Notes: generated by a model not told the origin, from the letters alone. A stretch of DNA of 64,000 nucleotides from an uncultured Clostridia bacterium (GCA_963558965.1 CAUWIT010000008.1:11423-75422); one strand, 5' to 3'. Positions 40,888 through 62,366 are shown, numbered from the stretch's first letter. Numbers and translations: made by a program.

Positions 40888-40992
40888 ACCGTATTAATGT
40901 ATCATCTCACAAGGTTTTTGTCAATGATTAGAATCAAAAAAACAAAATGGACTACCTAAATCGGTAGTCCACCTTGTTACTTAGAATAGAGC

Positions 40993-43900
40993 CTAGTGTG
41001 TTTTTCTGCGATAAAGTGCGCTTACTCCTAATGCCGCCAATGCCATTAGTGATGCATATAGTGCCCTAGGTGTTTCATCACCAGTCTGTGCAGATTTTTC
41101 TTCTTTTTCAGGTTTCTGTGTATTTACAGGTTTCTGCTGGTCTGCTGGTTTCTGTGTATCAACAGGTTTCTGTGTATCTGCTGGCTTCTGAGGATTTACA
41201 GGTTTTTCTGTATCTCCAGGTTGCTGCGGATCTACAGGTTGCTGTGGGTCTACTGGTTTAGAATCCTCAACTAGTTTTGCATAAGTTTTTTCAGCTTCAG
41301 TTAATACACTGATATTATTTACTAAAGCTTTTTGATCATCTGTTAACGCATCGTATGCCGCTCTTGCTTCTTCTAAAGCTTCCTTGCTTTCTAGTGTTAT
41401 TGTTCCTAGTGCATTGATTTTTTCGATTACTACTTTTGCAGCTTCTTTATTAGCTTTGTCTTGTTCAACTAGCTCTGCATATTTAATTTCACCTTCAAGT
41501 AATTTGTCCAAAGAAGTTACTAAAGCCTTTTGCTCATCTGTTAATGCATCATATGCTTTTCTTGCTTCTTCTAAAGCTTCTTTGCTTTCTAATGTTATTG
41601 TTCCTAGTGCATTGATTTTTTCTGTTACTTTATTTGCAGCTTCTTTATTAGCTTTGTCTTGTTCAACTAGCTCTGCATATTTTGTTTCTGCTTTTGTTAG
41701 AGTTTCATAATTTGTTACACCATCTTTTAACTCTTTTTCTAAAGCATCGTAAGCTGTTCTTGCCTTGTTGATAGCCGCTTCACTATCTAAAGAAACTTCG
41801 CCTATTTCATCGATTAAACCAATAACATTTGCTACTGCTTTTTTATCTGCTTCAGCTTTATCATATATTTCTTTATATTTTGCTTCTGCTGCTACTAATG
41901 AATCGTAGTTTGTAACTCCAGCTTTATCATCTGCTGCTAACTTATCGTATGCTTCTCTAGCTGCATCGATTTTACCTTTGCTCTCTAAAGTAACTGTACC
42001 AATTGCATCTATTTTAGCTACAACATCTGCAATATTTTCTTCTTTAGTTAATTGAGCATCAGTTTTAATTTTATCCATTTCAGCCTTTTGATCTGCATAG
42101 AATTTATCAAGTGATTTTAAATCCTTACACTTGCTTGCTCCTTGTGTGAAAGATGATACGATTTTTGAAATTTCTTCTTTTTGTTCAGGACGATAATCAT
42201 CAAGATTTTTGTATTCCTTGATTTCAGTATAATAAGCTTTTACTTGTAATGAAAATATGTTGTTTTTAGCACTTTTAAGTTTGCTTTCATATTTTCTTCC
42301 TACGATTCTTTTTTCTGATTGTGTTAAACTGTCAAATGCTTCCTGTGCTTTTTCATAATCTGCTCTCTTGTCAAGTCCTGGTTTATTTCCTAAGCCATCT
42401 ATCAAATCTTTAGTAATCTGAGTTTTTTCTTTTACTTTATCAAGTTCTGATTTTGCATTGACAACACATTCATCTATGCCATTATCGGAAGTTAAATCGT
42501 TTATTTGCTTTTTGTACTTTTCAACAATAGTTTTAATTTCTTCTTGCTGCTCTGCAAAGTATTTATCGATTTTTTTGTATCCTTCGATTTCAGCTATAGC
42601 ATTTTCTTTGCAAACTTCTAATAATCTTGTTTCAGCATCTGTTAAAATCTTTAATGTTTCTTCAGAAATCTGTTTCTTTTGATCTGCTGTTAGTGAATCG
42701 TATTTAAGTCTAATAGAATTTATAAGACCTTTTTTAGTAATATCTACTTCACCTATGCTATTGATTTCATCTATTATAGTTTTTACTTTTTCTTCATCTG
42801 TTTTAGATGCAAATGTTTTTGCTTCTTCAAATGCTGTCAAATTGTTATCGATTGTTGTCTGATTAATGCTATTATCAGTACCATTTGCTAACATTTCATC
42901 GTAAACTTTTTTAACCAAAGGATCTTTTATTAGTTCATCATAATTAGAACTTGCTTTAAAATCTGCAATTTCTTTTACTAATTTATCTTTGTTTAAAGTA
43001 TTTGGTACTATTGGATTTCCCCATCCTGTATCCCAACAATCGCTACCATAGCCACAAACTGTAAATGACCATCTAATAACCATATTATTTTCGCAAGGTA
43101 CACCAGATGCTCCAACAGGAGAGTGTAAATCGTTATATTTAAATACCCATCCAGATAAATTAGTGTAATCAAATTCACCTAACCACTGGCTATCTCTAGG
43201 ATTAGCTAAATCGATATTATTTTCTTTTATATAATCCTCCAAAAATTTAGGAAGAGTTGCTGTTGTACTGCCTTTAGTGTCGTTTATTGAAGAAAGATAA
43301 AATGAATCTTCTGGGGATCCTGTCATATCTACTTCATATCCATTATCTTGTAAATTTCTTACAAGTACTTGTGCTACATTTTCACCTTCATAATATGGAA
43401 TTTTTTCAGGCTCCAACATATATCCCTGTCCTATATTTCCTTTTTCTACACATAGATATACATATCCTGCAGGAGTAATTTCTTCTTTTTCTTCTACTTC
43501 AACCTGAGCAGTGGGCACAAAATAATACTCATGGTTAGCTTCTGTTACTATCGCCTTATACTTACCAACTGGTATATTTGTAAATTTAACTTTACCATTT
43601 TCATCTGACACAGCCTCTGCAACTGTCTTATCAGATTGGTCGATTAGAGCAACTTTAGCATTTGGCTCAGCTAACAAATTGCCGCCCATCATAGGCTGGT
43701 AGCTCTTTAGATTTAACTCTATGTCATCGCCAAACTGGCACTTAGTTGATAATTCCTCAAAGTAAAGAACAACGTCATTCCACCCTGGATCACAATAAAC
43801 AAATAGTTCAACAATATCATTATCCTTTAATACAGCTTGATTAATTAATGACATACCAGGTTGTAGATGATTTACTGTAAATCCTACATTCATTGTTTCC

Positions 43901-46311
43901 TGGCCAAACATTTTAGTAATCCAACCAGTTGGTCCAACGCCTAAGTATTCAGTAGGATTTTTTTCAAAATCTTCGCCGTACATGTACTTATGCATTGCTA
44001 CTGCTGCATCTAATACAGTTACTTCACCTGCGTATTCATCTGCTTTTTTGTATCCATATTTTTCAGCTAAATCTGAAGTGACTTCTAAATCCTTATAAAC
44101 CCCTTCAAACAAGCTTACTTCGTTAGCTCTAACTGTAACTTTTACAACCTTGCTAATTCTATTAGCTTTGGCATCTTTTACAGCTTTATCTAGAGCTTTT
44201 ATTGCATTATTTATTTCATCTGTTGTCGCATCTTCGTTTAAAAGTACTTTTTCAGCTTCTGTTATTGCTGCATTTAAAGTAGCCTTAGTTCCTTCTTTGT
44301 ACTGGCCGCCTTCTGTACCTTCAACGATACTATCGCAAAATGTTTTTGCGCTGTCTATGCTCTTTTTAAGACCTGCTTTTTCATCTACAGTGCCCTTAAC
44401 TTTTACAGTAACGCTTACTTCTTGCTTATATAGCTTTTGCAATTTTTCATTTTCTGGATGTTTCACTGCAAATTTTCCATATTTAGCACTGCTTAGAAGT
44501 GATGAAATAGTTACTTCCTGTGTATTATCTTGTCTTGTTACTAATAAGTTGTCATGTTTTACAACTGCGTTGTTGCTTGACTTAAACTTGTTGTAGCCAG
44601 CTGACTCCATTTCTACTGAATCTTCGAAAAAGTCGTCTGGCACTATGCCTGTACCTTTTACATCTTTAACATTGTACGCCCATACGATATTTCCTGCTTC
44701 ATCTAGACGCATCTCTGCAAAAGCGTGTAAGTTTCCAGTTATATTGTTTTTATCCTTGTACTGATTGTCGTTGATGCCTGCAAAACAGTTTGCCTTTGCT
44801 TTTTCCATCAATGCGATTTCAGCATCTAGTCTTTCATCTGTTATAGCTATAACTTTTACAGGAATGACTTTTTCTACTGTCACACCTTCTCTTGTGAATA
44901 AGACTGTTAAGTTTACAACCTTGTCTTCTTTTTGGAAAACGTCTACATTTGCTCTGTAGCCTGTAATTTTTATAACGCTTTCATCTGAGCTTTTTACTTC
45001 GATTTCTTTGTTTTTAAATACAAAATTATTGTTTTCGTCTTTTATTCTAGTGTATCTAGGTAACTGGATATCACATTGACAGTTATTAGTATCTAACTTC
45101 TCTTTTGTATCAATATCTGTTAATAAATCTGCTGTATAGTATTTATCTAAAATAGCTTTTAGTTCTGCCTCTGTTGGCTTAGCCTGTCCGTTTCCTTTTA
45201 CAGTTACTTTAAATGTTTTAGTTTGTGTTTCAAAATCTCCTACTTTTTCAACATTGCTGTTAAGTACTGAATCATTAGCCTTAAATGTTGCTGTTAGAGT
45301 TACTTCTGTATCTTGTTCCTGAGGCGTAACTACTCCTGTTAAAGGATATAGTTTGCTATCTATACTTCCAGCTTTTAGATTGATTACATCTGTATTTGAA
45401 CTTGTCCAGTCTACTACTGACCAAGCTTTATTTAATCCAGATTTCATACATTGTGGCAATGTTAAGTCTTTTGTTACACTTGTAAGATCAGCATTTTCAC
45501 CTTTAATTTTATCTGCTGTAAGCAAGTCGCTTTCTTCTTTTATCTTGCTATTGAAATGAGCAACATCCCAGCCGATTGTTACAGTTCTTGAAGATGTAAC
45601 TGCTTCTGCATTGCCTTTTGAAAATACAAATGTGCAACTTACATTTTTTACATTTGTGTAACCGCCAAGTTCACCTTTGTTGTAATTTATTTTTCCATCT
45701 AGACCTACATATGATGTATCATTTGAAGTCTTAACAGATACGCTTACACCTTGTACTCCTTCGTAGTTATTTACTTTATTCGCTACGAAATCATTGATAT
45801 TTGTAACATTATCCTTGCAACTAGGTCTAAGTGCACCATATTCCTTGTCGAAAGCTTTTTTTGCAGCATCAACTGCTGATTGGTCTGCTGGGCTGATAGC
45901 ATCTTGATTGATCATTTTAATATTTTCAACTAGATTAGCTTCATCCCCTTTAGGTGTTATTGTTCTTTGAATTTTTACATATTTATCTTTTGTAATTGTA
46001 TATGTATATTCAGTTCCTGGATATATGGCATAAGTTCCATCTGAACTTGGTGTTACTTCTTCTTCGTATTCATAACCAAGATCCCAGTCTTCTTCCATAT
46101 ATGTAACTTTTATAGTTGGATTTTCAATATTATCACCTGTTAATTTATCAGTAATATTGAACTTCAAATTGTATTTTGTAACAGCTTTTGTAACTTTAGT
46201 TGTTGGATTTTTTTCAGCTGCAAAAGTTGCCACTGGACTACTTACTCCAGATACTATTAACATAAGTGATAGCACCCATGCTAACAGCCTTTTATACTTT
46301 TTAGATTCCAT
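40993..46311 (-). CDS. Large sortase-anchored surface protein with two DUF4430 (transcobalamin-C-like) domains, Ig-like domains and helical repeats
   Basis: Signal peptide; WLGEFDYTNLSGW motif; 66-aa helical repeats; PVDPQQ repeats; AQTGD followed by a hydrophobic stretch and RRK tail. Confidence 0.75.
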   Translation of the reverse strand: MESKKYKRLLAWVLSLMLIVSGVSSPVATFAAEKNPTTKVTKAVTKYNLKFNITDKLTGDNIENPTIKVTYMEEDWDLGYEYEEEVTPSSDGTYAIYPGTEYTYTITKDKYVKIQRTITPKGDEANLVENIKMINQDAISPADQSAVDAAKKAFDKEYGALRPSCKDNVTNINDFVANKVNNYEGVQGVSVSVKTSNDTSYVGLDGKINYNKGELGGYTNVKNVSCTFVFSKGNAEAVTSSRTVTIGWDVAHFNSKIKEESDLLTADKIKGENADLTSVTKDLTLPQCMKSGLNKAWSVVDWTSSNTDVINLKAGSIDSKLYPLTGVVTPQEQDTEVTLTATFKANDSVLNSNVEKVGDFETQTKTFKVTVKGNGQAKPTEAELKAILDKYYTADLLTDIDTKEKLDTNNCQCDIQLPRYTRIKDENNNFVFKNKEIEVKSSDESVIKITGYRANVDVFQKEDKVVNLTVLFTREGVTVEKVIPVKVIAITDERLDAEIALMEKAKANCFAGINDNQYKDKNNITGNLHAFAEMRLDEAGNIVWAYNVKDVKGTGIVPDDFFEDSVEMESAGYNKFKSSNNAVVKHDNLLVTRQDNTQEVTISSLLSSAKYGKFAVKHPENEKLQKLYKQEVSVTVKVKGTVDEKAGLKKSIDSAKTFCDSIVEGTEGGQYKEGTKATLNAAITEAEKVLLNEDATTDEINNAIKALDKAVKDAKANRISKVVKVTVRANEVSLFEGVYKDLEVTSDLAEKYGYKKADEYAGEVTVLDAAVAMHKYMYGEDFEKNPTEYLGVGPTGWITKMFGQETMNVGFTVNHLQPGMSLINQAVLKDNDIVELFVYCDPGWNDVVLYFEELSTKCQFGDDIELNLKSYQPMMGGNLLAEPNAKVALIDQSDKTVAEAVSDENGKVKFTNIPVGKYKAIVTEANHEYYFVPTAQVEVEEKEEITPAGYVYLCVEKGNIGQGYMLEPEKIPYYEGENVAQVLVRNLQDNGYEVDMTGSPEDSFYLSSINDTKGSTTATLPKFLEDYIKENNIDLANPRDSQWLGEFDYTNLSGWVFKYNDLHSPVGASGVPCENNMVIRWSFTVCGYGSDCWDTGWGNPIVPNTLNKDKLVKEIADFKASSNYDELIKDPLVKKVYDEMLANGTDNSINQTTIDNNLTAFEEAKTFASKTDEEKVKTIIDEINSIGEVDITKKGLINSIRLKYDSLTADQKKQISEETLKILTDAETRLLEVCKENAIAEIEGYKKIDKYFAEQQEEIKTIVEKYKKQINDLTSDNGIDECVVNAKSELDKVKEKTQITKDLIDGLGNKPGLDKRADYEKAQEAFDSLTQSEKRIVGRKYESKLKSAKNNIFSLQVKAYYTEIKEYKNLDDYRPEQKEEISKIVSSFTQGASKCKDLKSLDKFYADQKAEMDKIKTDAQLTKEENIADVVAKIDAIGTVTLESKGKIDAAREAYDKLAADDKAGVTNYDSLVAAEAKYKEIYDKAEADKKAVANVIGLIDEIGEVSLDSEAAINKARTAYDALEKELKDGVTNYETLTKAETKYAELVEQDKANKEAANKVTEKINALGTITLESKEALEEARKAYDALTDEQKALVTSLDKLLEGEIKYAELVEQDKANKEAAKVVIEKINALGTITLESKEALEEARAAYDALTDDQKALVNNISVLTEAEKTYAKLVEDSKPVDPQQPVDPQQPGDTEKPVNPQKPADTQKPVDTQKPADQQKPVNTQKPEKEEKSAQTGDETPRALYASLMALAALGVSALYRRKTH

Positions 46312-46392
46312 GATGATAACTCCTCATAATTTATAGAAGGCTCAGTTAATATTTCTTATATAAATGAGCCTTCTATTAACTCATTTTAATTT

Positions 46393-49300
46393 TTATTTTT
46401 TACTTTTAATTTTTACTACTGAGCTAAATGAGCTCTTTCTACCATCTTTTGATATGGCTCTTACTTTATAGTAGTAAGTTTTTCCCTTTTTAGCAGAAGT
46501 GTTTTTATATGAAATATTTTTAGTTGTGTACTGTTTTTTAAATGTACCTGTTTTATTTACTGTTGATCTATATACTTCATATTTATATGCCTTGCTTACT
46601 TTTGTCCACTTAATATATGGCTTAGTTGATTTTATGATTTTAATTGTAGGCTTTATAACTTTTGTCTTATATCTAATCTGTCCACTAGTGCCGACAAGTT
46701 TATCATTTTTGTTGTAAGCTCTAACTTTATAATAGTAAGTCTTACCTGGTGTTGCACCTTTATAAGTGTAGCTATTTCCTTTAGTTGTACAAATTCTAGA
46801 GTATTGACCTTTTTCGGATGTTGCTCTATAAACTTTATATGTTGTTGCTGTTTTTACGTCTTTCCAATTTAATATCGGTTTTCCATCAACTGAACGATAT
46901 AACATTTTGACAGATATATCGTAAGGACTTCTCGCTTTACTTACTATATTACTATATTCACTATTATTGCCATTTTTAGCAATTGCAACTACCTTATAGT
47001 AATAAGTGTATCCTGCTACAGCTCCTGTATTTGTATAACTTGTACCTGATGTTGTATATGTTTTTGAGTATTTTCCATTTTTACTAGTTGCTCTATATAC
47101 CTCATAACTGCTAGCATATTTAATCTTAAACCAAGTAATTCTAGGTGCTCCTTTATTTAAACTTACTGAAATTTTTGGAGCATCAACAGTTAATTTGCTA
47201 AAACTGTCTTCTGCTGCTAACAACACATCATAATTTGTAACAAACTTTTGTTCCTCGCTAGTTAAACTATTATATGCTTTTCTTGCATCAGCAATAGCTG
47301 TTTCTTTTTCAAAAGTTACTGTTCCGATTCCATTGATTTTAGCAATTACAGCGTCTACTTTTTCCTTTGAAATTTCTTCTGCTGTCTTGATTTTGTCTAA
47401 CTTAGCTTTTGCTTCGTTTACGATATCCATCATTTCAGTTTCTGTAGTTGCACTAAACAATGCTGTTTTCGCTTCTAAAATAACATTATCTATTTCATCT
47501 TGCTGTGCCTTGTTATACTTTGATTTATCTTTGTAAGTTTCTATTATACTTAAATATTTATTTACTAATGAATCTTTTGATATAACTTTTACTGTTGATT
47601 TTCCTATAACAACTCCGTTTTCTGCTGTTGCAGCAATAGTTGTTTCACCAGCTTTAACTGCTGTAACATTTCCTTCTTGGTCAACTGTTGCAACTTCTTC
47701 ATCTAGAGAGCTCCAACTTAAATCCTGATAAGTCGCATCTATAGGATTTACTTTAGCCTTTATTTTAATCTTGCTATTTTCTAAGATAACAACTTCTTTT
47801 GGATTTAGTTCAATAGAAGCCACTGGTATTTTTTCTACAAGTCTTAGCTCGTAATTTTGTTTCGCCTTACCGTTTTCTGCTGTTACTTCAATAGTTACAC
47901 TTGCAGATTTAGTTTTATCGACTCTATATACTGCTGCATATTTATTTGAAGTTCCATTCAATTTTAATTCTGTACCTTTTTCAACTGCTTCTCCATTTCT
48001 CTTGCTTGCAACATTTTCATTTGCTAAAACCTTTACAGTTGCATTTGGATCTGTTGATTTTGCCCAAATCCTATAAAACTCATCTTCTTTTTGATCAGTT
48101 ATATCACAATCATAATTATAGACTTCACTTGAAAATTCATTTTTTAAAGGTATTAAATTGCTGTTGTAACTATTTGATGTGCTTACCTTTAGTTCGCTTA
48201 AAGTTGTAATAGCCGCAGTTTGAGAAATTTTCAAATTATATGTTCTTGCATATTCGCCATTAGATACTTTAATTGCTACATCTTTTGGTTTATCGCTTAT
48301 TTCTATTTTTTGCTTACCTTTGTATTCACTGCCATTAACAGTTACTTTTGAACCAGCAGATGCTTTTACTTCTAAATTAACGTATTTATCTTCACCTTTA
48401 ACTTTTACAATATAATTTCCATTTCGTGAATCAAAAGTTTGATCCCATGATACTGCGCTTTCACTATCTGTAGTAACTTTAATATCTTCAAGATATGCTG
48501 GGTTTGACTCTACTGCCATTAAATAGCAAGAGTCATTCTTGTAGTAGATAGTTCCCTTTTTATCTGCGCAAAGTGAGCTAATACAGTACTGCTGTTGTTC
48601 TTTAGGTGGTATAAATAACTCTGCACTGATTTTTGCTGCTTCACTTTGATCAGGAGTATCATAAGTGTAATAAATTCCTCCTGGATTTGCATTGTATGTA
48701 AAGTAGATATATACTCTTCCATCTGCTTTGCCATCATTGTTAAAATCGTCATTTACGTGAGCCGTAGACACTAAAGCTCCTGTTTGTGGGTAGCCTTTAA
48801 TAGGTATTCTATAAAGTTCTGAGTTGCTACTTAATTTTTCTTTGCTGTTATCGACTACTGCAAATCCATGGCCTCCGTCAGGGTTAAACTGACCACCTTT
48901 GCCACAAACTCCAATATATATTTTGTTTTTGTAGACTACTGGTGAAGCAGTTGTCATGCCCCCTAAATCAATGTAGCTATCTTCTCCTAAATTACCATTT
49001 TCATCTACTTTTATCTTATGTAACTGACCACCTTTTGTGCTGAAATACAAGTATCCATTGTCATACACTGTAGTAGTTCTAATATCACCTTTGATACCAT
49101 CTACTCTGCTAATAACTTCTCCTGTTTCAGTATCTAGTGTATAAAATACTGCATTTGTAGTGTATTCCCCTTCACTAGTTCCATCATCTGAACCTACTGC
49201 TATATACTTAGGTGTAGCATATGCACCAGCCCAATAAAAACCTCTAGGTGATGGGTTCGCTGAATTTTTAAGTTCCTTATCAAATGTTAGATTCCAATCA

Positions 49301-49983
49301 GGATTTTCTTTATCGCTTTTATTTCCAGAAGGTCTAAAAATCCACTTGAAATCCTTTATATCGCCATTTACATTTTCATCGTCAGTAGATACGCAAATGT
49401 ATTCACCATCTTTACTTTCGCCATTCCATGTACCTGTAACAATATATCCTTTGCCATCACTGCCTTTTGTATAGCTGATTGGAGAAACTGTCTGTCCTCC
49501 AATTTCTTCAGTGTGCCAAAGGGGCTCAAGAGTTTCATAATCGACAGCCTGTATCATGCCATTTCCAACTTGAGCAAATATTTTACCGTCTGCATAGATT
49601 AGTGGATTCATAGCATATCCCACATTTGCTACCATTTCATACGGGCTTCGCATAACCTCCTTTCCGGTTTCCTTATCCACTTTTACTATTTCTTTTCCCA
49701 CACCGATGTACAAATATCCGTCTAAAATAAGTGGCGGTGTTGGTGCTGCTCCCCAGCCAATTCCAAATTTACTTGCCCACTTTAGGTTTGTCGATTTGGC
49801 ACTAGTCGGGGTATTTACATCAGTAATACCATTGTTTTCCTGATTGTTTCTGAAGTTGTACCATTCTGCATTTGTAACTTCTTTAGCGTATCCAAATGAA
49901 GTAGGAACTATAACTGTTCCAAGCATCATAACTACGATAAAGAGCGACAAAAGCTTAGTAAACTTCTTCCCTCTAATACTCAT
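46393..49983 (-). CDS. Secreted protein: PQQ-like beta-propeller, cadherin-like sandwiches, Big_2 domain, helical repeat, three FnIII-like repeats
   Basis: Signal peptide from ATG 49983 (SD AAGGAGG); WYNFRNN..NNG and repeated W-blade motifs; YEVYRATSK / YYYKVRA repeats. Confidence 0.75.
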   Translation of the reverse strand: MSIRGKKFTKLLSLFIVVMMLGTVIVPTSFGYAKEVTNAEWYNFRNNQENNGITDVNTPTSAKSTNLKWASKFGIGWGAAPTPPLILDGYLYIGVGKEIVKVDKETGKEVMRSPYEMVANVGYAMNPLIYADGKIFAQVGNGMIQAVDYETLEPLWHTEEIGGQTVSPISYTKGSDGKGYIVTGTWNGESKDGEYICVSTDDENVNGDIKDFKWIFRPSGNKSDKENPDWNLTFDKELKNSANPSPRGFYWAGAYATPKYIAVGSDDGTSEGEYTTNAVFYTLDTETGEVISRVDGIKGDIRTTTVYDNGYLYFSTKGGQLHKIKVDENGNLGEDSYIDLGGMTTASPVVYKNKIYIGVCGKGGQFNPDGGHGFAVVDNSKEKLSSNSELYRIPIKGYPQTGALVSTAHVNDDFNNDGKADGRVYIYFTYNANPGGIYYTYDTPDQSEAAKISAELFIPPKEQQQYCISSLCADKKGTIYYKNDSCYLMAVESNPAYLEDIKVTTDSESAVSWDQTFDSRNGNYIVKVKGEDKYVNLEVKASAGSKVTVNGSEYKGKQKIEISDKPKDVAIKVSNGEYARTYNLKISQTAAITTLSELKVSTSNSYNSNLIPLKNEFSSEVYNYDCDITDQKEDEFYRIWAKSTDPNATVKVLANENVASKRNGEAVEKGTELKLNGTSNKYAAVYRVDKTKSASVTIEVTAENGKAKQNYELRLVEKIPVASIELNPKEVVILENSKIKIKAKVNPIDATYQDLSWSSLDEEVATVDQEGNVTAVKAGETTIAATAENGVVIGKSTVKVISKDSLVNKYLSIIETYKDKSKYNKAQQDEIDNVILEAKTALFSATTETEMMDIVNEAKAKLDKIKTAEEISKEKVDAVIAKINGIGTVTFEKETAIADARKAYNSLTSEEQKFVTNYDVLLAAEDSFSKLTVDAPKISVSLNKGAPRITWFKIKYASSYEVYRATSKNGKYSKTYTTSGTSYTNTGAVAGYTYYYKVVAIAKNGNNSEYSNIVSKARSPYDISVKMLYRSVDGKPILNWKDVKTATTYKVYRATSEKGQYSRICTTKGNSYTYKGATPGKTYYYKVRAYNKNDKLVGTSGQIRYKTKVIKPTIKIIKSTKPYIKWTKVSKAYKYEVYRSTVNKTGTFKKQYTTKNISYKNTSAKKGKTYYYKVRAISKDGRKSSFSSVVKIKSKK

Positions 49984-50014
49984 ACTTACCTCCTTTTTTA
50001 TAAAATATTTTTTA

Positions 50015-51289
50015 TTACCAAATATCAACTTCTTCACGCCATCCACCAGCGTTTACACTTATATATTCACGACCTAAAGAAGTTGTGAATCCCCATCGGA
50101 TTTCGTCCCCATCATTTAAATCTATATTGGAAGTTCCTGTTTCTAAGTATTCCCCATTTAAAATACATATCCAGCCAGAATCCTTATAAAAGTCAAACTC
50201 TCCTAAGCTGTCTTCTTTGTGTTTCATGATAGTGGCACCCTCAGCATCGAGTTTATCTTTTAATTTTTTAGGAATGGCATATCCGTTAGTTATACCGTTT
50301 TTGTAAATCCTGCTTAAGTATGCTCCTGTATATCCTGAAGATTTCATAGTATATGAAATGCCCTTGCTATCAAGCACTCTCTTAGTTACTTCCGCTATAC
50401 TTTCATCTTTATAAATATCTACAGTCATACCTGTTTCAACTATAGTTCCCTTACCTATAGTTTTAGCTTCAATAGTCACTCTAACTTGACCTATAACTTC
50501 TTTTTCTCCATTTGGATCTGCATAAATGGTGTAATTTTTAGTAATTGTATTATCTTCACTATCTTTTACAGTTATTGTTACTTTGTTTTCGCCTTCATTG
50601 ACGTCCCACTTGTATTTGCGTTCGTAGTTATTTGAACCAGAACTGCTAATTTTTTCGCCATTTACCCTAACTGTAAAATTAAATGCTTCTATTTTATATC
50701 CTTTGTAATCCTTAGCAGATAATTCAAATGACAATTTTAAACCTGCTATTGTCTCACCATCTTTTAGATTTGTTACAATAGTTGGCAATTTAGAGTTTTG
50801 GTCATCATCTCCTGGATTTTCTGGAACAACTGGATCGGTTGGTTTTTCTGGTTCTACCGGATCAGTTGGCTCAGTTGGTCCATCTGGACCATCTGGGCTA
50901 ATTTGCCCATCTGGATTTGTCGGTTTACCTGGACTTGTTGGGCCATCTTTACCATCGCTTGGTTTATTTTGTTTGCTCGGTTTTTCTTTTTCAATCTCCT
51001 GCTCTATACGATTTTCAAATTGATTTCTCTTTTCTTTTTCCTTTTTTTCAATTTGTTTTTGCTGTTGCTTCTGTTGTTTTTTGTATTCTTTTTCTTGATC
51101 CTTATTTAAAGAATACTTCTCCCCGCTAACTAGCACTTGCGAGCGATTTTTATTGATACTAGATATTGGATTTTCTCCTCTAGCCTCTGGTGTATTTTTC
51201 ACAACACCGTACAAAGCTCCAATTGAAATGGCCAAAATCACCAGTATTGCCACTGTAATTTTCTTTTTATTTGAAATGTTTTTTAACAT
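50015..51289 (-). CDS. Membrane-anchored DUF4430 protein with Pro-rich linker and Ig-like domain
   Basis: N-terminal TM helix, PT/PD-rich stalk, C-terminal SLGEFDFYKDSGW. Confidence 0.72.
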   Translation of the reverse strand: MLKNISNKKKITVAILVILAISIGALYGVVKNTPEARGENPISSINKNRSQVLVSGEKYSLNKDQEKEYKKQQKQQQKQIEKKEKEKRNQFENRIEQEIEKEKPSKQNKPSDGKDGPTSPGKPTNPDGQISPDGPDGPTEPTDPVEPEKPTDPVVPENPGDDDQNSKLPTIVTNLKDGETIAGLKLSFELSAKDYKGYKIEAFNFTVRVNGEKISSSGSNNYERKYKWDVNEGENKVTITVKDSEDNTITKNYTIYADPNGEKEVIGQVRVTIEAKTIGKGTIVETGMTVDIYKDESIAEVTKRVLDSKGISYTMKSSGYTGAYLSRIYKNGITNGYAIPKKLKDKLDAEGATIMKHKEDSLGEFDFYKDSGWICILNGEYLETGTSNIDLNDGDEIRWGFTTSLGREYISVNAGGWREEVDIW

Positions 51290-51294
51290 AACTC

Positions 51295-52230
51295 TTACCT
51301 TTTTTCTTGGTACAGTTTTTCATTTTTTTCTAATAGTTTAATGCTATCTAATGCTAAAAGTGCTTTTTCTGTTGCCATCACATTTGGATCATCACTGTCT
51401 TCATCAACTGTGTGTTTAAAACCGCCATCTGTTTTATATCTCATAAGTCCATCGTATAAGCTGTTGCCATCCTTTATAAATCTTTTATCATTTACAGGAT
51501 CAACTCCCACAGATGTTAGACCTATAATCACTTCTACTGTTGATTCGCAGTTTCCATAACTTCCGTCTTTTTGTTGCTTATCTGATAGCCCATCTACACA
51601 CTGGTCTATTGCACTTTTTACTTTTTTATCTTCCTTGTAGTAGCTTAGTCCTTGCAAATACATAGCCCCATAATCCACTATATTTTCAGTTTTATATGCT
51701 TTATTTTTTACTATCTCATCTGTCAATATATCTATGTACTTCTGTTCATTTTCAAGTTTTACACCTGCTACATTTGAAGCGATAAGGGCAAATGCCACTG
51801 CATTATTTCCTTGGTCTGTTACTTTTTTATAATTATCCAAAGGTTTGACTATATTGTATCCTTCTATATTTTCAGGATTTTCCCCTACGGCACAAACTCC
51901 AATAGTTACCCTTGCGTATTCCGTATAATACTTTTCGTCCAACACACCTTTTTCAGATTTTACAGTTGCCCTAACATCATCAAAATATGTGGTGAAGTAA
52001 CTTTGTTCATCATCTAACGAAATACCACTAGCTTTGACACCTTTAACCGCCCATTCTCCACCGACAGAACCTACACTTGCCGTTGGATTTAGCTCTTTGA
52101 CATCTGAAACTGTATCTTCAATTTGCTTGTTTATATCACCTTTGCCACAGCCGGTAAAAAACAATGCCATACACATGGTCAATACAACCAAAATAGATAT
52201 GCTACTTTTTCTTTTTTTGATTTTTTCCAT
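51295..52230 (-). CDS. Lipoprotein with alpha/alpha-barrel (prenyltransferase/squalene-oxidase repeat-like) fold
   Basis: Lipobox FFTG-C; QQKDGSYGNCESTVEVIIGL and DGGFKH QW-like repeats; MATEKALLAL. Confidence 0.72.
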   Translation of the reverse strand: MEKIKKRKSSISILVVLTMCMALFFTGCGKGDINKQIEDTVSDVKELNPTASVGSVGGEWAVKGVKASGISLDDEQSYFTTYFDDVRATVKSEKGVLDEKYYTEYARVTIGVCAVGENPENIEGYNIVKPLDNYKKVTDQGNNAVAFALIASNVAGVKLENEQKYIDILTDEIVKNKAYKTENIVDYGAMYLQGLSYYKEDKKVKSAIDQCVDGLSDKQQKDGSYGNCESTVEVIIGLTSVGVDPVNDKRFIKDGNSLYDGLMRYKTDGGFKHTVDEDSDDPNVMATEKALLALDSIKLLEKNEKLYQEKR

Positions 52231-54229
52231 GAGATTTCTTCTCCTTTTTAAGCCTCTTCAAACTTGCCGCCATGTTTTCCCTATCTTCTTCACTTATCTC
52301 ATCTTGACTGTAAGCAGCCTTGTTACCTAAGATTTTTTCTTCTTCGCCTATATCCAATTTCAGTTCTTCCATATAGCCATACATAGCAGCTACAGCGACT
52401 TTGGCCTCGCCTTTTTTAAACAACTTGTTTCGTCTGTAAATAACTATCCATTTTTTAACACATCTATAGAGGAAATAAATTAACAATAGTAGTAACAATC
52501 CTAAAATTGCAATAGTTACAATCACTCCAATTTTAAAATCTATATCTTTGTTAGTCTTGTTTTCCTTTGTTTGTTGCTTGCTTTTAACACTGTTGTTATT
52601 TTGTTCAAACTTCTTTTTAACAGCATTATTTGACAATCCTATTGTCATATCTGCTTCTTCCATGCGACCTTCGTACTCTGGGCAAACTTCAATAGGTACA
52701 AAACCTACACCATCTACATATATTTCTGTCCATGCATGAATGTCTTTTGGGGTTATTTCTACTTTTTCTCCCGCCTTAGCTTTTTTCACAGCATCAGGTG
52801 TTAAAAGATACCCTTCTACATACCTAGCTGGTATGCCATAATATCTAAACATTAGAGTAGCCGCTGTTGCATAATGTATATCATAGCCTTTATTTTTTTC
52901 GAAAATAGCTGAGGTTACATCTGTATTTTTATCTGTGATTAGTCCTGGATTTTCAGTATACAAAATGTTTTCATCAAGATATTTTTTTACCTTGTTTATA
53001 GCTGTTTTGTATTCTATATGTCCTTTTGATTGATCACCTTTATTGCCGATATAGTTTTTCATCAATCTTATATCGCTAATAGATAAATATGTGTATTTTT
53101 CATAGACAAACTGATTGTAATAGCTTTCGTTTACTAAATATTTTTTCATATCTTTTGTTTTTTCTTTAGTAAACATTTTGGCTGCTATTTCAGTCCAGTT
53201 TTTTACGCTGTTTTGTTTTGTCTTATATTGATAGCTTTTCATCTTACTTCTATTGTTTTTTGTAAGATAATTGTTGTACCAATTTACTTCGTCTCCACCT
53301 AGCTCGCTTATTTCATAAGGAATATATCCATATTTTTTATTTGCCTTTTTTACATTTATCTCTACGTCTATATCCTTGTCTTTTGTTCCAGTTAATATGC
53401 CCGCCTGTCCTATTTGACCCATGCCATTGAAATTTTCTTTTTCTAGCCAATACATTAGATTTTTTGATTGGTCATAATCTTCGTAAGGAAGTGTTTCCCA
53501 TGTATTTCCGTTATGTACTTCGCCAACAAATCCTCTTAAATACATGGATTGTGGTTTTGACATAGTTACTTCCAACGCTACTTGGTCTTCGTCTACATCT
53601 CGTTTTGTTTGGTACAAATCACCTCCACCTAGGGGAGATTTGCCATATTTAAATTGGTCTATTTTCTTTTCTATTTTTTTATCAATTAGTCCAATTTTGT
53701 ATGGTCTTGTCATATATTTGCTAGTTGCCGGCAAAAAAACTAATGTTAAAACCAGCGAAACCATCAAAGCAACCAATATGACATTCCACCTTGATAAGCT
53801 CTTTTGGTTTATGTATATAAAATCAAGTGCCAATGCGCCTACAAGGACAATGGCCCACAATACTGCTGGGGCTAGGCTTGTCACTAATGTGGGGATCAGA
53901 GGTATTGCCACAAAAATTAAAAGTAGCCACTTGTTTTCACTTTTAAAAATCAACCAGCTTACCAATGCAAATGCGATTATTGTAATGGGGATAAATAAGC
54001 TAAAGCTGTCGCTTGCTCCTGATAATTCTTTTAAAACTATCCCGTCATCATTTAAAACTGTTGTTGCTATAGTGTTCCACAACTTTTTGAAGCCTATTGT
54101 AAAGTTAGTTATGTTGAAAACACTACAAAAACATCCGACTTCTGCAACAGCTGTAAATACACATAGCAAAAGCGTTACGAATTTATTATTTTTTAAATTG
54201 TTCTGGTCTATATAAATTAACTTTTCCAT
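52202..54229 (-). CDS. Membrane protein with transglutaminase-like domain (catalytic Cys replaced)
   Basis: Multi-TM N-terminus; GYDIHYATA...GIPARYVEGY...HAWTEIY. Confidence 0.8.
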   Translation of the reverse strand: MEKLIYIDQNNLKNNKFVTLLLCVFTAVAEVGCFCSVFNITNFTIGFKKLWNTIATTVLNDDGIVLKELSGASDSFSLFIPITIIAFALVSWLIFKSENKWLLLIFVAIPLIPTLVTSLAPAVLWAIVLVGALALDFIYINQKSLSRWNVILVALMVSLVLTLVFLPATSKYMTRPYKIGLIDKKIEKKIDQFKYGKSPLGGGDLYQTKRDVDEDQVALEVTMSKPQSMYLRGFVGEVHNGNTWETLPYEDYDQSKNLMYWLEKENFNGMGQIGQAGILTGTKDKDIDVEINVKKANKKYGYIPYEISELGGDEVNWYNNYLTKNNRSKMKSYQYKTKQNSVKNWTEIAAKMFTKEKTKDMKKYLVNESYYNQFVYEKYTYLSISDIRLMKNYIGNKGDQSKGHIEYKTAINKVKKYLDENILYTENPGLITDKNTDVTSAIFEKNKGYDIHYATAATLMFRYYGIPARYVEGYLLTPDAVKKAKAGEKVEITPKDIHAWTEIYVDGVGFVPIEVCPEYEGRMEEADMTIGLSNNAVKKKFEQNNNSVKSKQQTKENKTNKDIDFKIGVIVTIAILGLLLLLLIYFLYRCVKKWIVIYRRNKLFKKGEAKVAVAAMYGYMEELKLDIGEEEKILGNKAAYSQDEISEEDRENMAASLKRLKKEKKSHGKNQKKKK

Positions 54230-55268
54230 ATTCCAAAAATCTTTCTAATGCTACATCTCTGTTTGATACTACTGCAAAATTCGAATAATTTTTATCGCAC
54301 TGTGCTTCTATAAACTGTTCGCTTACAGGTCTTAACTTATCTGTAAAAGGACTTGTTAAAAACTCTGGCAAAATAGACCACAGGTCTTCTTCGTCTTCTA
54401 TTTTAAAAGTTACAAATTTTTGTTTTGTCCAGTTATACCAACCTATATTGTGTGGTATATTTTTTCGTAAAAATGTATATGACAGGGATACTGCAAATTC
54501 TGTTGCTTGGCTTTTCTCGATTTTTCCAAATGTTTCATCTTGCAATATGCCTTTGTCTACGATTATCATCAGTTTGTTATCAACGGGTAACCCTAGCTCT
54601 CTTATAACTATGTCATCCATTTTTCCTGATAGTTTCCAATGTATTGATTTAATGTTGTTTCCCGGCTGATATGTGTTAATACCAAAAGTTTCACTGCTGT
54701 CATTACCTTTTTTATTTGGTGAAAATTTGTAGCTTTCCATATCGTAATGGCTCTGTTCTTCTTTTGTAATATCAAGCTCTCTTACTTGGGGCAATACATA
54801 TACATAGTCATATAAGTCTTCTTCTATTTTTTCTGACATTTTGCCAAAGGTGTCCTTCACTTCCACTTCTTTTAGTTCAACTAAAATACCGCCGCAAAGT
54901 GAATCTTTTATTTGAAATTTTATTTCTTTTTTTCCTTTTGGTCCTATGTTTACAATCCAATTTTCACTGTCTTTTTGTCCAGTAATTATATTTTTTATAT
55001 GGACTTTTACAGATATATTTAAAATTGGCATCTGACCTTGGTTTTTCAATTTTACTGTGATTTGGTTTTGCTTATCTGCTGAAACTGTTTCCATAGATAC
55101 TTGCAAATTTTTCTTGCCTTTTTCAACCATGATTTTTGAAAATACAAGATACAAAACTGTCAATAGTACAAGGCTTGAAACTATCATTCCTTCTTTTGAT
55201 ATATATGCAAATATTGTTACAGCCAAAATAGCTAAAACCAAAATCAATTTCTTTATCTTATTTTTCAT
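54186..55268 (-). CDS. DUF58 domain protein (MoxR partner)
   Basis: GNDSSETFGINTYQPG..IHWKLSGK motif; N-terminal TM helices. Confidence 0.82.
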   Translation of the reverse strand: MKNKIKKLILVLAILAVTIFAYISKEGMIVSSLVLLTVLYLVFSKIMVEKGKKNLQVSMETVSADKQNQITVKLKNQGQMPILNISVKVHIKNIITGQKDSENWIVNIGPKGKKEIKFQIKDSLCGGILVELKEVEVKDTFGKMSEKIEEDLYDYVYVLPQVRELDITKEEQSHYDMESYKFSPNKKGNDSSETFGINTYQPGNNIKSIHWKLSGKMDDIVIRELGLPVDNKLMIIVDKGILQDETFGKIEKSQATEFAVSLSYTFLRKNIPHNIGWYNWTKQKFVTFKIEDEEDLWSILPEFLTSPFTDKLRPVSEQFIEAQCDKNYSNFAVVSNRDVALERFLEYGKVNLYRPEQFKK

Positions 55269-55270
55269 AG

Positions 55271-56203
55271 TTAATCAAGTTTCGGTGCTACTACTTCTTT
55301 TAAAATATCTTCTAAAACTGCTGTGCTATCTTTATCTGCAAGCTGAGCTTTTGGATGAAGGATAATTCTGTGTTTATTAACATCTACGTACAATTTGTCT
55401 ACGTCTTCTGGTGTTACAAAATTTCTACCTTGTACATAGGCCTCAGCTTTAGCAATAGATGCAAGAGCCAATGCTCCACGAGGGCTTACGCCAAGTTTTA
55501 CCAAAGGATGATTTCTTGTCCCTTCTGTTAAAGCAGTTATATATTTATATATTTTTACATCTACAAAAGTATCCCTTGCTTCTTTTATCATATTTTCCAG
55601 TTGCTCTACAGTTAGAACTTGTTCTATTTTATATAAGGGATCTTCTTTATCTCTGTTTTGCAATATAGCAACTTGGTCTTCAAAGCTAGGATATCCCATG
55701 GAAAGCTGTATCATAAATCTATCCAGCTGAGCTTCTGGCAACATCTGTGTGCCGATAGTGCCTATAGGGTTTTGTGTTGCCATTACTATAAATGGATGTG
55801 GCACATCATGTGTAACTCCATCAACTGTTACTTTGCCTTCTTGCATTACTTCTAGCAAAGCTGACTGAGTCTTACTTGAAGTTCTGTTTATTTCATCTGC
55901 CAAGAAAAAGTTGCACATAGCTGCACCTGGATTGTATTTAAATGATCCTTTTTCCTTATCATACATAGTGAAACCTGTTATATCTGAAGGAACCACATCA
56001 GGTGTAAACTGTACTCTGTTAAATTTAAGTCCCATAGCTTTTGTACAGGCCAATGCCAATGTAGTTTTTCCAACTCCTGGTATATCTTCTAACAAAATAT
56101 GGCCTCCAGCTAAAATAGCTACTAAAACTTTTTCAATAACTTCGTCTTTACCTGTTACAGCTTTTCCTATTTCCTCTTTGATTTTTAAGATTTCTGTATT
56201 CAT
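55271..56203 (-). CDS. MoxR-family AAA+ ATPase
   Basis: EDIPGVGKT, RVQFTPDVVPSDITG, DEINR, ATQNP, LPEAQLDRF. Confidence 0.93.
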   Translation of the reverse strand: MNTEILKIKEEIGKAVTGKDEVIEKVLVAILAGGHILLEDIPGVGKTTLALACTKAMGLKFNRVQFTPDVVPSDITGFTMYDKEKGSFKYNPGAAMCNFFLADEINRTSSKTQSALLEVMQEGKVTVDGVTHDVPHPFIVMATQNPIGTIGTQMLPEAQLDRFMIQLSMGYPSFEDQVAILQNRDKEDPLYKIEQVLTVEQLENMIKEARDTFVDVKIYKYITALTEGTRNHPLVKLGVSPRGALALASIAKAEAYVQGRNFVTPEDVDKLYVDVNKHRIILHPKAQLADKDSTAVLEDILKEVVAPKLD

Positions 56204-56251
56204 CTCATCTCTCCATCTGTTTAAAATTGTTTTCTAAATTATTTTTGGGCA

Positions 56252-56283
56252 TAAAAAAAAGACTATTTGCATTACAAATAGCC
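56252..56283 (-). terminator. Attenuator terminator of cobalamin riboswitch 1
   Basis: GGCTATTTG-TAATG-CAAATAGTC followed by a U tract on the minus strand. Confidence 0.8.
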
Positions 56284-56320
56284 CGTATATCTATCTATTA
56301 CAAATGATACTCGTCATTGA

Positions 56321-56485
56321 TATTTTCAAGCAAGTCTCCTGACTTGTGCATCATCACAGACCTTTGCCATCCCAAAAAAACTCTTATTTCAGTGGCTTAT
56401 TAAAGGGCTGCTCCTCACTTACAGTGGCGGTACCGTACAGGACTTTAACCTGTTTCCTTTATTAAGTATATTAACACTTGAAAAT
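56321..56485 (-). promoter_or_regulatory. Cobalamin riboswitch, long class-I type
   Basis: AAGGAAACAGGTTAAAGTCCTGT...CCGCCACTGTAA...GCCACTG...GGGATGGC...AAGTCAGGAGACTTGC; own promoter TTGACA(56527-56532)-17-TAAAAT(56504-56509). Confidence 0.93.
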
Positions 56486-56523
56486 CTATTCCCCTGTCCT
56501 AATATTTTATATCTTTAGCATTA

Positions 56524-57273
56524 TCATGTCAACAATGCTTTTACAGTTGATTCGCACTGTCTACTCTCTACAGTCATTGAAAACTGTGGATTTTTAGCCT
56601 GTCTAACAATTTCGACAATTTTCTTTATATCCATATTTCCCTTATCTATTGGATTGTGCTCATCTTCGCTTCCAAAGTTGTTATGTATATGCATATGAGT
56701 CACATAAGGAGCTAAAACTTTTGCCCATGTTTCCACATTTATTTCCTTGTCGGTCATAGCATTTGCATGGCCCACATCTAGACATATGGTCGCTCTTTTA
56801 TCGTCTATTGCTTCTATTAGATCTCGCATTACATATGGCTCATCTTCGAAAACGTTTTCTATCATTATATTAAAATCCGCCGGTTTATCACGTAAAAATG
56901 TTCTCCAAAACTTTACGGATTTTTCTATGTGCCACTGTTTATAATACAAAAGAGGTATGTAACCTGTGTGTACAACCATTCTTTTAACTCCTAATTCTTT
57001 ACAGATATCGTATGCCTCGTTTAACCTATCTAAGCCTAACTGAACAGCTCTTGGATCTATGGACGCCGGTATGATTTCAGTAAAAGGCCCATGAACTATA
57101 GCTTTTTGAGCATTTGATGCAGCGAAATCCTTTTTCATTTGTCTCAATGTTCTTTCTCGTCTATCTAAATTTTCAGAGATGCAAAGATGGTTAAATTCCA
57201 TGTTTACTCCATATTTATTTATCACTTCTATGGCATTTTCTGAAAAAGTAGCCACATATATATTAGTATTCAT
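56524..57273 (-). CDS. Xylose-isomerase-like / AP endonuclease 2 TIM-barrel metalloenzyme
   Basis: VHGPF, VVHTG, IENVFE, LDVGHA, HMHIHNN, HNP, TVES metal-ligand pattern. Confidence 0.82.
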   Translation of the reverse strand: MNTNIYVATFSENAIEVINKYGVNMEFNHLCISENLDRRERTLRQMKKDFAASNAQKAIVHGPFTEIIPASIDPRAVQLGLDRLNEAYDICKELGVKRMVVHTGYIPLLYYKQWHIEKSVKFWRTFLRDKPADFNIMIENVFEDEPYVMRDLIEAIDDKRATICLDVGHANAMTDKEINVETWAKVLAPYVTHMHIHNNFGSEDEHNPIDKGNMDIKKIVEIVRQAKNPQFSMTVESRQCESTVKALLT

Positions 57274-57838
57274 CTATGTTTACATCCTTACCGTTGTCAC
57301 ATGTATATACCCATACGACTTTATCATTGTTTTTTAACTTGTATTGAGAACATCCGTAATTAGGATATTTTTTATTTACATAATACTGCCATCCACTTAA
57401 CTTGCCACCATCAAATTCGTAAATGTGATTGATACCTTCTACATAATATGAATCGTAGGATTTTGTATAGCTGTACTCAGTCTGTATGTTTTCCTTGTTT
57501 GTAGCTTTTTTTAACAAATCAAAAGCAGTTGCATCTTTTTCAAGAGTATACTGAGTTTCCTTTAATATAACTCCATCTTTTGGAACCCATTTTGCTTTTT
57601 CCTGTTTTTTTAGTTTGTCCATATTGTTAGATAAATTGTCGCACCTTATTTCCATAGTAACTTTTATAGTATTTTTACCATCTACATCTTTTTGTGCGTC
57701 CTTCATAGCCTTGTCTTTCGTTTCAATATTCATCGTCCCAAAGACAACTATTGCAACAACAACTAAAATACATATAATCCCTATATTTCTCTTCTTTTTA
57801 TTTTTTATTTTTTTCTCAAACTCACTCATAAAACTCAC
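57263..57838 (-). CDS. Membrane-anchored DUF4430 protein (likely cobalamin-binding partner of the ECF transporter)
   Basis: YYVEGINHIYEFDGGKLSGWQYYVN..YPNYGCSQY. Confidence 0.85.
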   Translation of the reverse strand: MSFMSEFEKKIKNKKKRNIGIICILVVVAIVVFGTMNIETKDKAMKDAQKDVDGKNTIKVTMEIRCDNLSNNMDKLKKQEKAKWVPKDGVILKETQYTLEKDATAFDLLKKATNKENIQTEYSYTKSYDSYYVEGINHIYEFDGGKLSGWQYYVNKKYPNYGCSQYKLKNNDKVVWVYTCDNGKDVNIDEY

Positions 57839-61258: not shown

Positions 61259-61259
61259 T

Positions 61260-62261: not shown

Positions 62262-62287
62262 ATGTCCCTCATCTAACTCATATATAC

Positions 62288-62314
62288 AAAAAAACTGCAA
62301 CTATTGTCGCAGTC
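62288..62314 (-). terminator. Attenuator terminator of cobalamin riboswitch 2
   Basis: GACTGCGAC-AATA-GTTGCAGT followed by a U tract on the minus strand. Confidence 0.8.
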
Positions 62315-62366
62315 CCTTATTTTTTACAACACAAAAACAACTTATCTGATCCTCCGTCAGTAAGTT

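Follow-up and report, generated by a model that had tools for sequence, protein, structure and literature searches.

We analysed a 64,000-nucleotide window from an uncultured Clostridia bacterium (GCA_963558965.1, CAUWIT010000008.1:11423-75422) and focused on a seven-gene operon (40993-56485) that follows a cobalamin riboswitch. The operon encodes a MoxR-type ATPase, a DUF58 protein and a transglutaminase (TG)-like membrane protein, together referred to here as the trio, followed by a toroid lipoprotein, a DUF4430 stalk protein, a propeller protein and a cell-wall protein. With moderate confidence, we interpret it from sequence and structural models as a B12-repressed, surface corrinoid-capture operon that probably feeds the neighbouring CbrT-like energy-coupling factor (ECF) importer, with the trio serving as an integral membrane platform. 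The link of MoxR, DUF58 and TG to B12 seems to be the only element of this system not previously described. Coordinates refer to the window, and all features of the operon and of the adjoining ECF operon lie on the minus strand.

The control region carries a complete set of signals for riboswitch control. The aptamer (RF00174, Rfam covariance model; 56312..56496) scored 98.1 bits against a gathering score of 31.5 (E 2.9e-23) and matched model positions 1-189, which is the full length including the peripheral P6 region. Just upstream, overlapping the 3' end of a TIM-barrel gene, lies the best-scoring promoter of the region, a sigma-70-like TTGACA-17-TAAAAT (56504..56532) with 11/12 consensus matches. 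The aptamer is followed by a hairpin with an 11-bp stem and a 3-nt loop and by U8 (56252..56284), 57 nt ahead of the MoxR ATG; together they form a predicted leader terminator or attenuator that would act as the expression platform. Strong terminator-like sites on the minus strand of the region were limited to two, namely this leader site (56284..56252) and the intrinsic terminator closing the operon (40978..40941), in which 16 pairs precede a U-run. The minimum free energy fold of the leader gave the terminator and no clear alternative pairing for an antiterminator, and a hairpin followed by a U-run was present in 14/16 related leaders, with stem sequences that differed. The leader architecture supports a predicted cobalamin OFF switch acting by transcription attenuation.

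The seven open reading frames (ORFs) were confirmed and are all co-oriented, as the initial annotation had stated together with the riboswitch and its attenuator. They are spaced, in order, by 2 nt, a 44-nt overlap, a 29-nt overlap, 5 nt, a 32-nt overlap (or, with ATG 49983 as the start of the propeller protein, a 31-nt gap) and 81 nt. The last of these intervals, which separates the propeller gene from the wall-protein gene, contains a stable hairpin with no U-tract (46328..46381; -22.3 kcal/mol, z -4.7), which is possibly a partial terminator or a processing or stability element. Because no promoter-like site was detected in this gap at the scan threshold, the wall-protein gene is likely to be co-transcribed with the operon.

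The first gene (55271..56203) encodes a 310-aa, cytoplasmic MoxR-type AAA+ ATPase (Pfam AAA_3 1.5e-54, AAA_lid_2 1.7e-21) in which both the Walker A (GVGKT) and Walker B (DEINR) motifs are readable and intact. In NCBIfam it was weakly similar to ChlI/ChlD and to a putative cobaltochelatase subunit, with all scores far under the family cut-offs. The DUF58 gene (54186..55268) begins 2 nt downstream of MoxR and encodes 360 aa, with an N-terminal hairpin of two transmembrane (TM) segments and a body that hydropathy places in the cytoplasm. The protein scored 20.0 bits against PF01882, under the cut-off of 23.4, and 15/16 orthologues matched the family (best E 5e-7). An active metal ion-dependent adhesion site (MIDAS) in DUF58 was considered and rejected: the DxSxS motif is degenerate, reading VDKGI here and DK.., DN.. 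or ET.. across 78 relatives.

The third gene (52202..54229) encodes a 675-aa TgpA/YebA-like polytopic membrane protein that matched Transglut_core (PF01841, 4.4e-18; 66 bits against a cut-off of 23) and, weakly, TgpA_N. The Cys of the TgpA G-x-C-x-x-Y-A motif is the catalytic residue of that enzyme. Pseudomonas aeruginosa TgpA (6G49, E 1.2e-4) was the sole PDB sequence relative; in the alignment, gyDihya stands opposite gfCahya, the His is retained, and Glu replaces Asp as the third residue of the triad. The Cys position was occupied by Asp or Ser, never Cys, in 84/84 family members examined, with Ser in the Oscillospiraceae-type relatives. Since the catalytic Cys is replaced, the TG-like domain is, judged by its residues, catalytically dead as a transglutaminase, and would represent a pseudo-enzyme or an altered site. 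Hydropathy predicts that the TG-bearing loop of 400 aa lies outside, followed by a C-terminal TM segment and an 88-residue Lys/Arg-rich tail inside. Within the genome, MoxR was the sole strong match to the locus MoxR profile (7.6e-163; next 7.2e-05) and the sole strong TG profile match also lay here, other matches to the two being marginal; toroid, propeller and DUF58 were found at this locus only.

The fourth gene (51295..52230) encodes a 311-aa lipoprotein with the lipobox FTGC; most orthologues also have a lipobox. Its sequence yielded no Pfam match and no PDB sequence match, and a longer relative passed the Pfam Prenyltrans cut-off. When a structural model built from 31 orthologues (predicted local distance difference test score, pLDDT, 93.7) was compared with PDB folds, the first 13 ranks were taken by transcobalamin and haptocorrin of human, rat and bovine origin (E 6e-4 to 8e-3, template-modelling scores ~0.5-0.6), with intrinsic factor at rank 24. 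The model therefore supports an alpha/alpha toroid of the transcobalamin alpha type, in agreement with the alpha-barrel lipoprotein named in the initial annotation.

The fifth gene (50015..51289) encodes a membrane-anchored, 424-aa protein composed, in order, of a TM segment, a juxtamembrane motif, a Gln/Lys/Glu-rich and Pro-rich stalk, a beta-sandwich and a C-terminal DUF4430 domain resembling transcobalamin beta. This domain fell below the Pfam cut-off (2.2e-4) and was matched by a locus-derived profile at 3e-28 (residues 331-411); a PDB sequence search gave nothing useful. Stalk proteins share the juxtamembrane motif NP[IL]..[IV]N..RS..L..G..Y.L, which reads NPI..IN..RSQVLVSG..Y.L here. Across ~50 orthologues, stalk residues ~35-100 comprise this conserved motif and then a low-complexity stretch rich in Gln, Lys and Glu. 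On its composition, the Gln/Lys-rich segment beside the dead TG-like domain looks like a substrate-like docking site.

The sixth gene (46393..50046; the start may be the ATG at 49983) encodes a BamB/PQQ-like propeller protein of 1217 aa (Pfam PQQ_2 and model), predicted to be secreted or anchored, with an 8-bladed propeller at residues ~53-560, Ig-like and Big_2 domains, a helical repeat and three FN3-like repeats. The top 50 PDB fold matches of the propeller model (pLDDT 93.5) were BamB, YxaL, PQQ dehydrogenases and tetrathionate hydrolase. A BtuG-like propeller was ruled out, as the matches were of the BamB/PQQ type and no BtuG entry stood among these 50. Pfam reported no NEAT (Isd-type) domain in any of the seven operon proteins. 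The parallel that the initial annotation drew with BtuG and Isd systems consequently does not hold as relatedness, and can be kept as a functional analogy.

The last gene (40993..46311) encodes a 1772-aa wall protein with a signal peptide, Ig-like/SpaA-like domains, a DUF4430 domain, helical repeats and a Pro-rich wall spacer, ending in SAQTGD, a TM segment and RRKTH. The ending fits the genome's own xxQTG[DE] consensus; ~8 other ORFs end in a similar xx[QK]TG[DE]-type signal, and the genome has one sortase gene (PF04203, 51 bits). Anchoring of the wall protein by sortase is supported by this sorting signal. Two DUF4430 domains had been annotated in the protein. One, at residues 1012-1095, was supported (E 7e-22, locus-derived profile); the proposed first one, at ~residues 720-845, was not accepted, with no Pfam match at E<=1 and a local-profile E of 6.3. 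The gene, set apart by the hairpin described above, does not belong to the conserved core; in sister genomes no counterpart follows the propeller gene, indicating a lineage-specific addition. Taken together, the sequence features and models support extracytoplasmic, anchored binders of the transcobalamin type, with cobamide binding predicted. The three DUF4430 proteins of the genome are all encoded at this locus.

Directly upstream lies a second B12-controlled operon (56524..62503; Rfam and Pfam), as the initial annotation had noted. Its riboswitch (62360-62503) is shorter and scored 73.9 bits (RF00174), and the operon ends 28 nt before the MoxR-operon aptamer. Its six genes encode an HNH-repeat protein, ECF T, a fused A-A' ATPase, the S component, a small anchored DUF4430 protein (PF14478, 1.1e-19) and an AP_endonuc_2 TIM-barrel protein; Pfam matches included CbiQ (3e-4), ABC_tran twice (7e-58) and ECF S-component profiles (2.4e-18). 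The sole PDB sequence match of the S component was weak (6FNP, E 5e-4), and we take this entry to be the ECF-CbrT structure.

Several further observations were made on ECF-associated genes. The TIM-barrel protein (56524-57273, minus strand) was as similar in NCBIfam to CbiR (44 bits, cut-off 105) as to endonuclease IV, in both cases below threshold, and homologues recur in 10 related loci. The HNH-repeat protein (61260-62300, minus strand) carries homing-endonuclease-associated repeats (HNH_repeat) with no nuclease domain reported, and in several genomes its gene comes first behind the riboswitch of the ECF operon (also at loci L022, L023, L029, L032, L039 and L051). ECF A-A' and S component are joined in single ORFs of 819-899 aa beside clusters L039, L052, L058 and L069, with similar long frames in family relatives.

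Within the genus, the operon occurred in 4/7 other species; the riboswitch lay directly before MoxR in 4/4 of these and the ECF operon directly upstream in 3/4. A close ECF-S orthologue and TG were both present in the four genomes and in the window's genome, and both absent in the remaining three; in one of the carriers, G002, the S-component match was weaker and split in two pieces. The conserved core comprises MoxR, DUF58, TG, toroid, DUF4430 stalk and propeller, with the toroid not detected in G002 (1/4).

A scan of 185,579 species genomes yielded 189 relatives of the TG protein, of which the best 79 loci were analysed and 77 were scorable. Locus features were called with iterated profiles, and riboswitches with a covariance model (R1) derived from nine local riboswitches and containing 16 base pairs only; a feature was counted when it lay on the same strand as TG and within 10 kb of it. 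A toroid and/or DUF4430 gene accompanied TG in 65/77 loci, a propeller gene in 43/77, ECF genes in 33/77 and a cobalamin riboswitch in 31/77. Synteny was kept over Anaerovoracaceae, Lachnospiraceae, Oscillospiraceae, Christensenellales, Peptococcaceae and others, in at least three gene orders. In several Lachnospiraceae and relatives (e.g. L029, L033, L036, L037 and L051), a single riboswitch-led operon encodes ECF T-AA'-S, a small DUF4430 protein, MoxR, DUF58, TG, toroid, DUF4430 and propeller. The Oscillospiraceae-type order runs propeller, DUF4430, toroid, MoxR, DUF58, TG, small DUF4430 and ECF, headed by a riboswitch in L086. Extra riboswitches stand directly before propeller or DUF4430 genes in L026, L050, L065 and L086.

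Gene fusions were also detected. TG and toroid are joined in one ORF of 910-1059 aa in three loci (L049:9944-12892, L053:4-2736 and L054:2681-5860). Such Rosetta-stone type fusions argue for physical association of the two proteins and fit a TG domain located outside the membrane. Riboswitch control, anchored transcobalamin-type binders and the linkage of ECF genes with the trio across many Clostridia partly support the B12-controlled surface capture apparatus put forward in the initial annotation, subject to the points weighed below.

Two loci showed arrangements of their own. L039, from an Oscillibacter metagenome-assembled genome, carries tandem cobalamin riboswitch matches (6835-7039 and 7559-7762, plus strand; 75 and 70 bits with R1) before MoxR at 7865. 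In G022, a relative from another genus, an IS110-family transposase gene (L020:2508-3674, minus strand) is inserted between MoxR and DUF58, and the last protein of the cluster is a CWB2-anchored homologue of the wall protein's N-terminal half.

The favoured reading can be set out as a sequence of steps. When cobalamin is plentiful, the riboswitch would let the leader terminator form, and transcription would stop before MoxR. When cobalamin is scarce, the cell would make a split transcobalamin-like binder, consisting of the toroid lipoprotein and the DUF4430 domain on its membrane-anchored stalk, together with the propeller surface protein and, in this lineage, the sortase-anchored wall protein bearing another DUF4430 domain. 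The trio platform would be made at the same time, with MoxR in the cytoplasm, DUF58 tethered to the membrane and the polytopic TG-like protein exposing its dead domain externally. Toroid and DUF4430 may clamp the corrinoid as the two domains of transcobalamin do; the dead TG domain may provide a docking site for the toroid lipoprotein and for the stalk protein's juxtamembrane motif; and MoxR and DUF58, acting from the cytoplasm, may use ATP to assemble or remodel the complex. In this way the corrinoid would be passed to the small DUF4430 protein and to the CbrT-like S component.

The host, a gut bacterium, has a small genome of 1.63 Mb, with 34% G+C and 99.9% completeness, which contains four cobalamin riboswitches and three proteins with B12-binding domains, the latter fitting a need for B12. 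One riboswitch heads cbiMNQO and a run of cbi/hem genes, among which CbiK, CbiD, CbiJ, CbiB and CbiP were confirmed and others were assigned by visual reading; of the anaerobic pathway, CbiA, CbiG, CbiE/T and the genes for the nucleotide loop were not located in the genome. Because of this riboswitch-led run, the organism probably makes corrinoids itself.

A separate observation concerns a 111-bit cobalamin riboswitch on contig C3 of G000 (C3:58915-59104, plus strand; L001:1501-1690), which has no plausible same-strand gene downstream and faces the 3' end of a minus-strand gene for a 346-aa membrane protein (C3:59413-60453); it may be an orphan, act in antisense or belong to a riboswitch-containing small RNA. 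Elsewhere in the window, a group I intron match (33891-34226, minus strand, 66 bits) and a raiA RNA match (1516-1678, minus strand, 132 bits) were recorded, and a further raiA match is located close to the Eubacterium minutum version of the cluster (L044:18610-18775).

Several results weigh against a dedicated corrinoid-capture role. Firstly, the co-occurrence with cobalamin riboswitches that the initial annotation had proposed for checking was seen in the 31 of 77 loci and in 4/4 sister-genus operons, but ~60% of the related loci showed no riboswitch. Rfam likewise found none in six R1-negative loci, which suggests that the negative fraction is probably real or that the promoters lie beyond the fetched DNA. 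In G022, which has the trio, no riboswitch was present in the 20-kb locus or 15 kb upstream. Secondly, 12/77 loci carry the trio without DUF4430 or toroid and with a stalk-protein homologue. The juxtamembrane motif also occurs in the gene after TG at loci without DUF4430 (L025, L028 and others; 42% identity over 67 residues, E 1e-15). The trio thus has no intrinsic specificity for B12. Thirdly, in an even sample of 300 Clostridia, TG-like proteins were found in 70 genomes (mostly as a TG core match only) and the propeller family in 6; the two overlapped in the window's genome and in one other, there on different contigs. This near-absent overlap indicates that the B12 link is a property of one, the nearest, TG branch. 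Fourthly, the genome encodes much of the anaerobic B12 pathway under another riboswitch, and scavenging is therefore not obviously needed. Fifthly, a homologous ECF system with a split binder in Lactobacillus sakei was proposed as a heme importer (bioRxiv 10.1101/864751). Lastly, MoxR is cytoplasmic and the binders are outside, so that any coupling must cross the membrane.

In one alternative explanation, which we regard as rather unlikely, the binders capture corrinoids for the ECF importer and the trio is a generic, client-agnostic envelope chaperone for the maturation or quality control of stalk proteins, with no part in ligand transfer. This would account for the 12 of 77 loci in which the trio is followed by a stalk homologue that has the juxtamembrane motif and no DUF4430, for the pairing of the trio with an FN3 surface protein in the Bifidobacterium PFNA cluster, for the occurrence of TG-like membrane proteins in 70 of the 300 Clostridia, mostly outside this context, and for the ECF-S homologues of many relatives that have no trio. 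However, it accommodates less easily the single riboswitch-led operons in which the trio lies between binder and transporter genes, or the three genomes in which TG is fused to the toroid and not to a stalk protein; moreover, no strong match to the locus-derived profiles of MoxR, DUF58 and TG was found elsewhere in the genome.

A role of the trio in releasing the ligand was also considered. In MoxR/vWA pairs such as CbbQO and NorQD, remodelling of a client serves to insert or release a ligand that is tightly bound. By analogy, an unloading role is conceivable, but here it would have to operate across the membrane. In that form, the trio would be an ATP-powered transmembrane mechanotransducer in which the polytopic TG protein transmits the effect of cytoplasmic hydrolysis to its external pseudo-enzyme domain, which then pries open the very tight toroid/DUF4430 clamp and delivers the corrinoid to the ECF S component, an idea that we put forward as speculative and consider unlikely. 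If true, it would provide a Gram-positive functional counterpart of TonB-energised B12 uptake, as well as the first defined client and mechanism for MoxR-DUF58-TG triads (YeaC/YeaD/YebA, PFNA).

The identity of the ligand is a separate question. That the system takes up a different tetrapyrrole or an incomplete corrinoid (heme, cobinamide or cobyric acid) and not complete cobamides appears improbable to us. The L. sakei Lsa1836-1840 system, which is homologous, was linked to heme uptake, and a reviewer of the 2007 paper on Gram-positive transcobalamin-like proteins (PMC1796856) warned against B12 as the sole assumed ligand. Precursor salvage or remodelling would also fit the late genes CbiB and CbiP and the weakly CbiR-like TIM barrel (44 vs 105 bits). 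Nevertheless, 31 loci have cobalamin riboswitches ahead of the cluster or of parts of it, the closest folds of the toroid are B12 carriers, the sole PDB match of the S component is 6FNP, which we take to be ECF-CbrT, and nothing at the locus points to heme.

An explanation by retention or competition instead of import, in which a B12 producer uses surface binders to retain its own released cobamide or to starve competitors and the trio maintains this coat, is highly unlikely in our view. The riboswitch-controlled cbiMNQO and cbi/hem biosynthesis operon and the large multi-domain wall protein with adhesin-like Ig/SpaA domains are in its favour, whereas the tight linkage to a dedicated ECF importer in 33 loci and OFF regulation by B12 fit acquisition under scarcity. 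Furthermore, most carriers of such proteins in the 2007 survey (PMC1796856) were without key B12 synthesis enzymes. A coincidental neighbourhood, with a trio unrelated to B12 that merely shares a transcript in this lineage, is scarcely credible, since the many related clusters without a riboswitch are set against synteny over many families in at least three gene orders and against the gene fusions.

The corrinoid-capture reading is of interest for several reasons. The competition of gut Gram-positive bacteria for scarce cobamides is poorly understood and far less studied than the Bacteroides BtuB/BtuG/BtuH systems. The MoxR-DUF58-TG triad is common in Firmicutes and Actinobacteria, and we know of no client for it. 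In at least 65 species-level genomes, counted among the 77 closest of 189 relatives, one branch of this orphan trio is genetically embedded in a B12 system, and this context supplies the trio with a candidate ligand, a regulator and a phenotype that can be measured as uptake or growth at low B12. Some of the relatives that carry the system can be cultured, including Gallibacter intestinalis, Brotonthovivens ammoniilytica, Eubacterium minutum and Hornefia butyriciproducens. The locus is also relevant to the proposal that animal B12 carriers have a bacterial origin.

Our literature searches put the novelty of the system into perspective. A full-text search, which left most subscription journals outside its coverage, found no paper tying the MoxR/DUF58/TG trio to cobalamin. 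The literature search found no functional paper on DUF4430 and no experimental test of the SLBB/DUF4430 transcobalamin-like family of surface proteins predicted in 2007; the literature on CbrT and riboswitches held nothing on this architecture. The initial annotation knew of no functional description of the architecture. This seems to hold for the link to the trio; the remainder was anticipated, as binder, toroid, propeller and CbiO/CbiQ were joined in a model published in 2007 (PMC1796856) and a split binder pair with an ECF system was reported in 2019 (bioRxiv 10.1101/864751).

Comparison with known systems shows the following similarities and differences.

Among systems for capturing B12 at the cell surface, BtuG and BtuH of Bacteroides are B12-binding lipoproteins that are riboswitch-controlled together with the transporter and capture B12 for the importer, BtuG being a beta-propeller. 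No relationship to them was detectable: the propeller of this operon has eight blades and is BamB/PQQ-like, the cell envelope is of the Gram-positive type, and import relies on an ECF transporter and not on a TonB-dependent one.

Among systems related to the trio, YeaC-YeaD-YebA of Bacillus subtilis is a MoxR (MRP)/DUF58/TG-like triad with an identical gene order. In MoxR/vWA or chelatase pairs, including CbbQ-CbbO, NorQ-NorD, CoxD-CoxE, ChlI-ChlD and CobS-CobT, the MoxR-type AAA+ ATPase and its vWA-type partner remodel a client, whereby a tightly bound ligand or metal is inserted or released. The clients of these pairs are cytoplasmic, whereas those presumed here are outside the membrane, and the MIDAS of the DUF58 protein is degenerate. 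P. aeruginosa TgpA (6G49) shares with the TG-like protein an N-terminal multi-TM region, an external transglutaminase core and the same alignment register, but the relationship is distant, with Cys changed to Asp and Glu as the third triad residue here. The Bifidobacterium PFNA cluster (PMC8430577), in which the trio is joined to an FN3 surface protein and a Ser/Thr kinase, has the same three genes in the same order and an adjoining gene for a large surface protein. It differs from the present locus, which has a cobalamin riboswitch, transcobalamin-like binders and an ECF importer, and in whose subfamily the TG Cys is lost throughout.

The closest counterparts of the binders are found in two Gram-positive systems. 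L. sakei Lsa1836-1840 comprises split alpha/beta transcobalamin-like proteins and an ECF system for which heme was argued (bioRxiv 10.1101/864751). Like the present locus, it encodes separate extracellular alpha (toroid) and beta (DUF4430-like) proteins together with ECF S, T and A; however, no MoxR/DUF58/TG trio, propeller or wall protein is described there, heme is the proposed ligand and riboswitch control does not seem to be at issue. Burroughs, Balaji, Iyer and Aravind (2007; PMC1796856) predicted that Gram-positive surface proteins with the SLBB domain (later DUF4430) scavenge B12, and noted their frequent fusion to toroids, Ig domains or a propeller and the association of their genes with CbiO/CbiQ. 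MoxR, AAA, DUF58, vWA and transglutaminase go unmentioned there, and the genome studied here has much of the B12 pathway; yet both share secreted or sortase-anchored DUF4430-type domains that are paired or fused with a toroid, sometimes with Ig, helical-repeat or propeller domains, and paralogous binders that occupy one operon with ECF-type CbiO/CbiQ genes.

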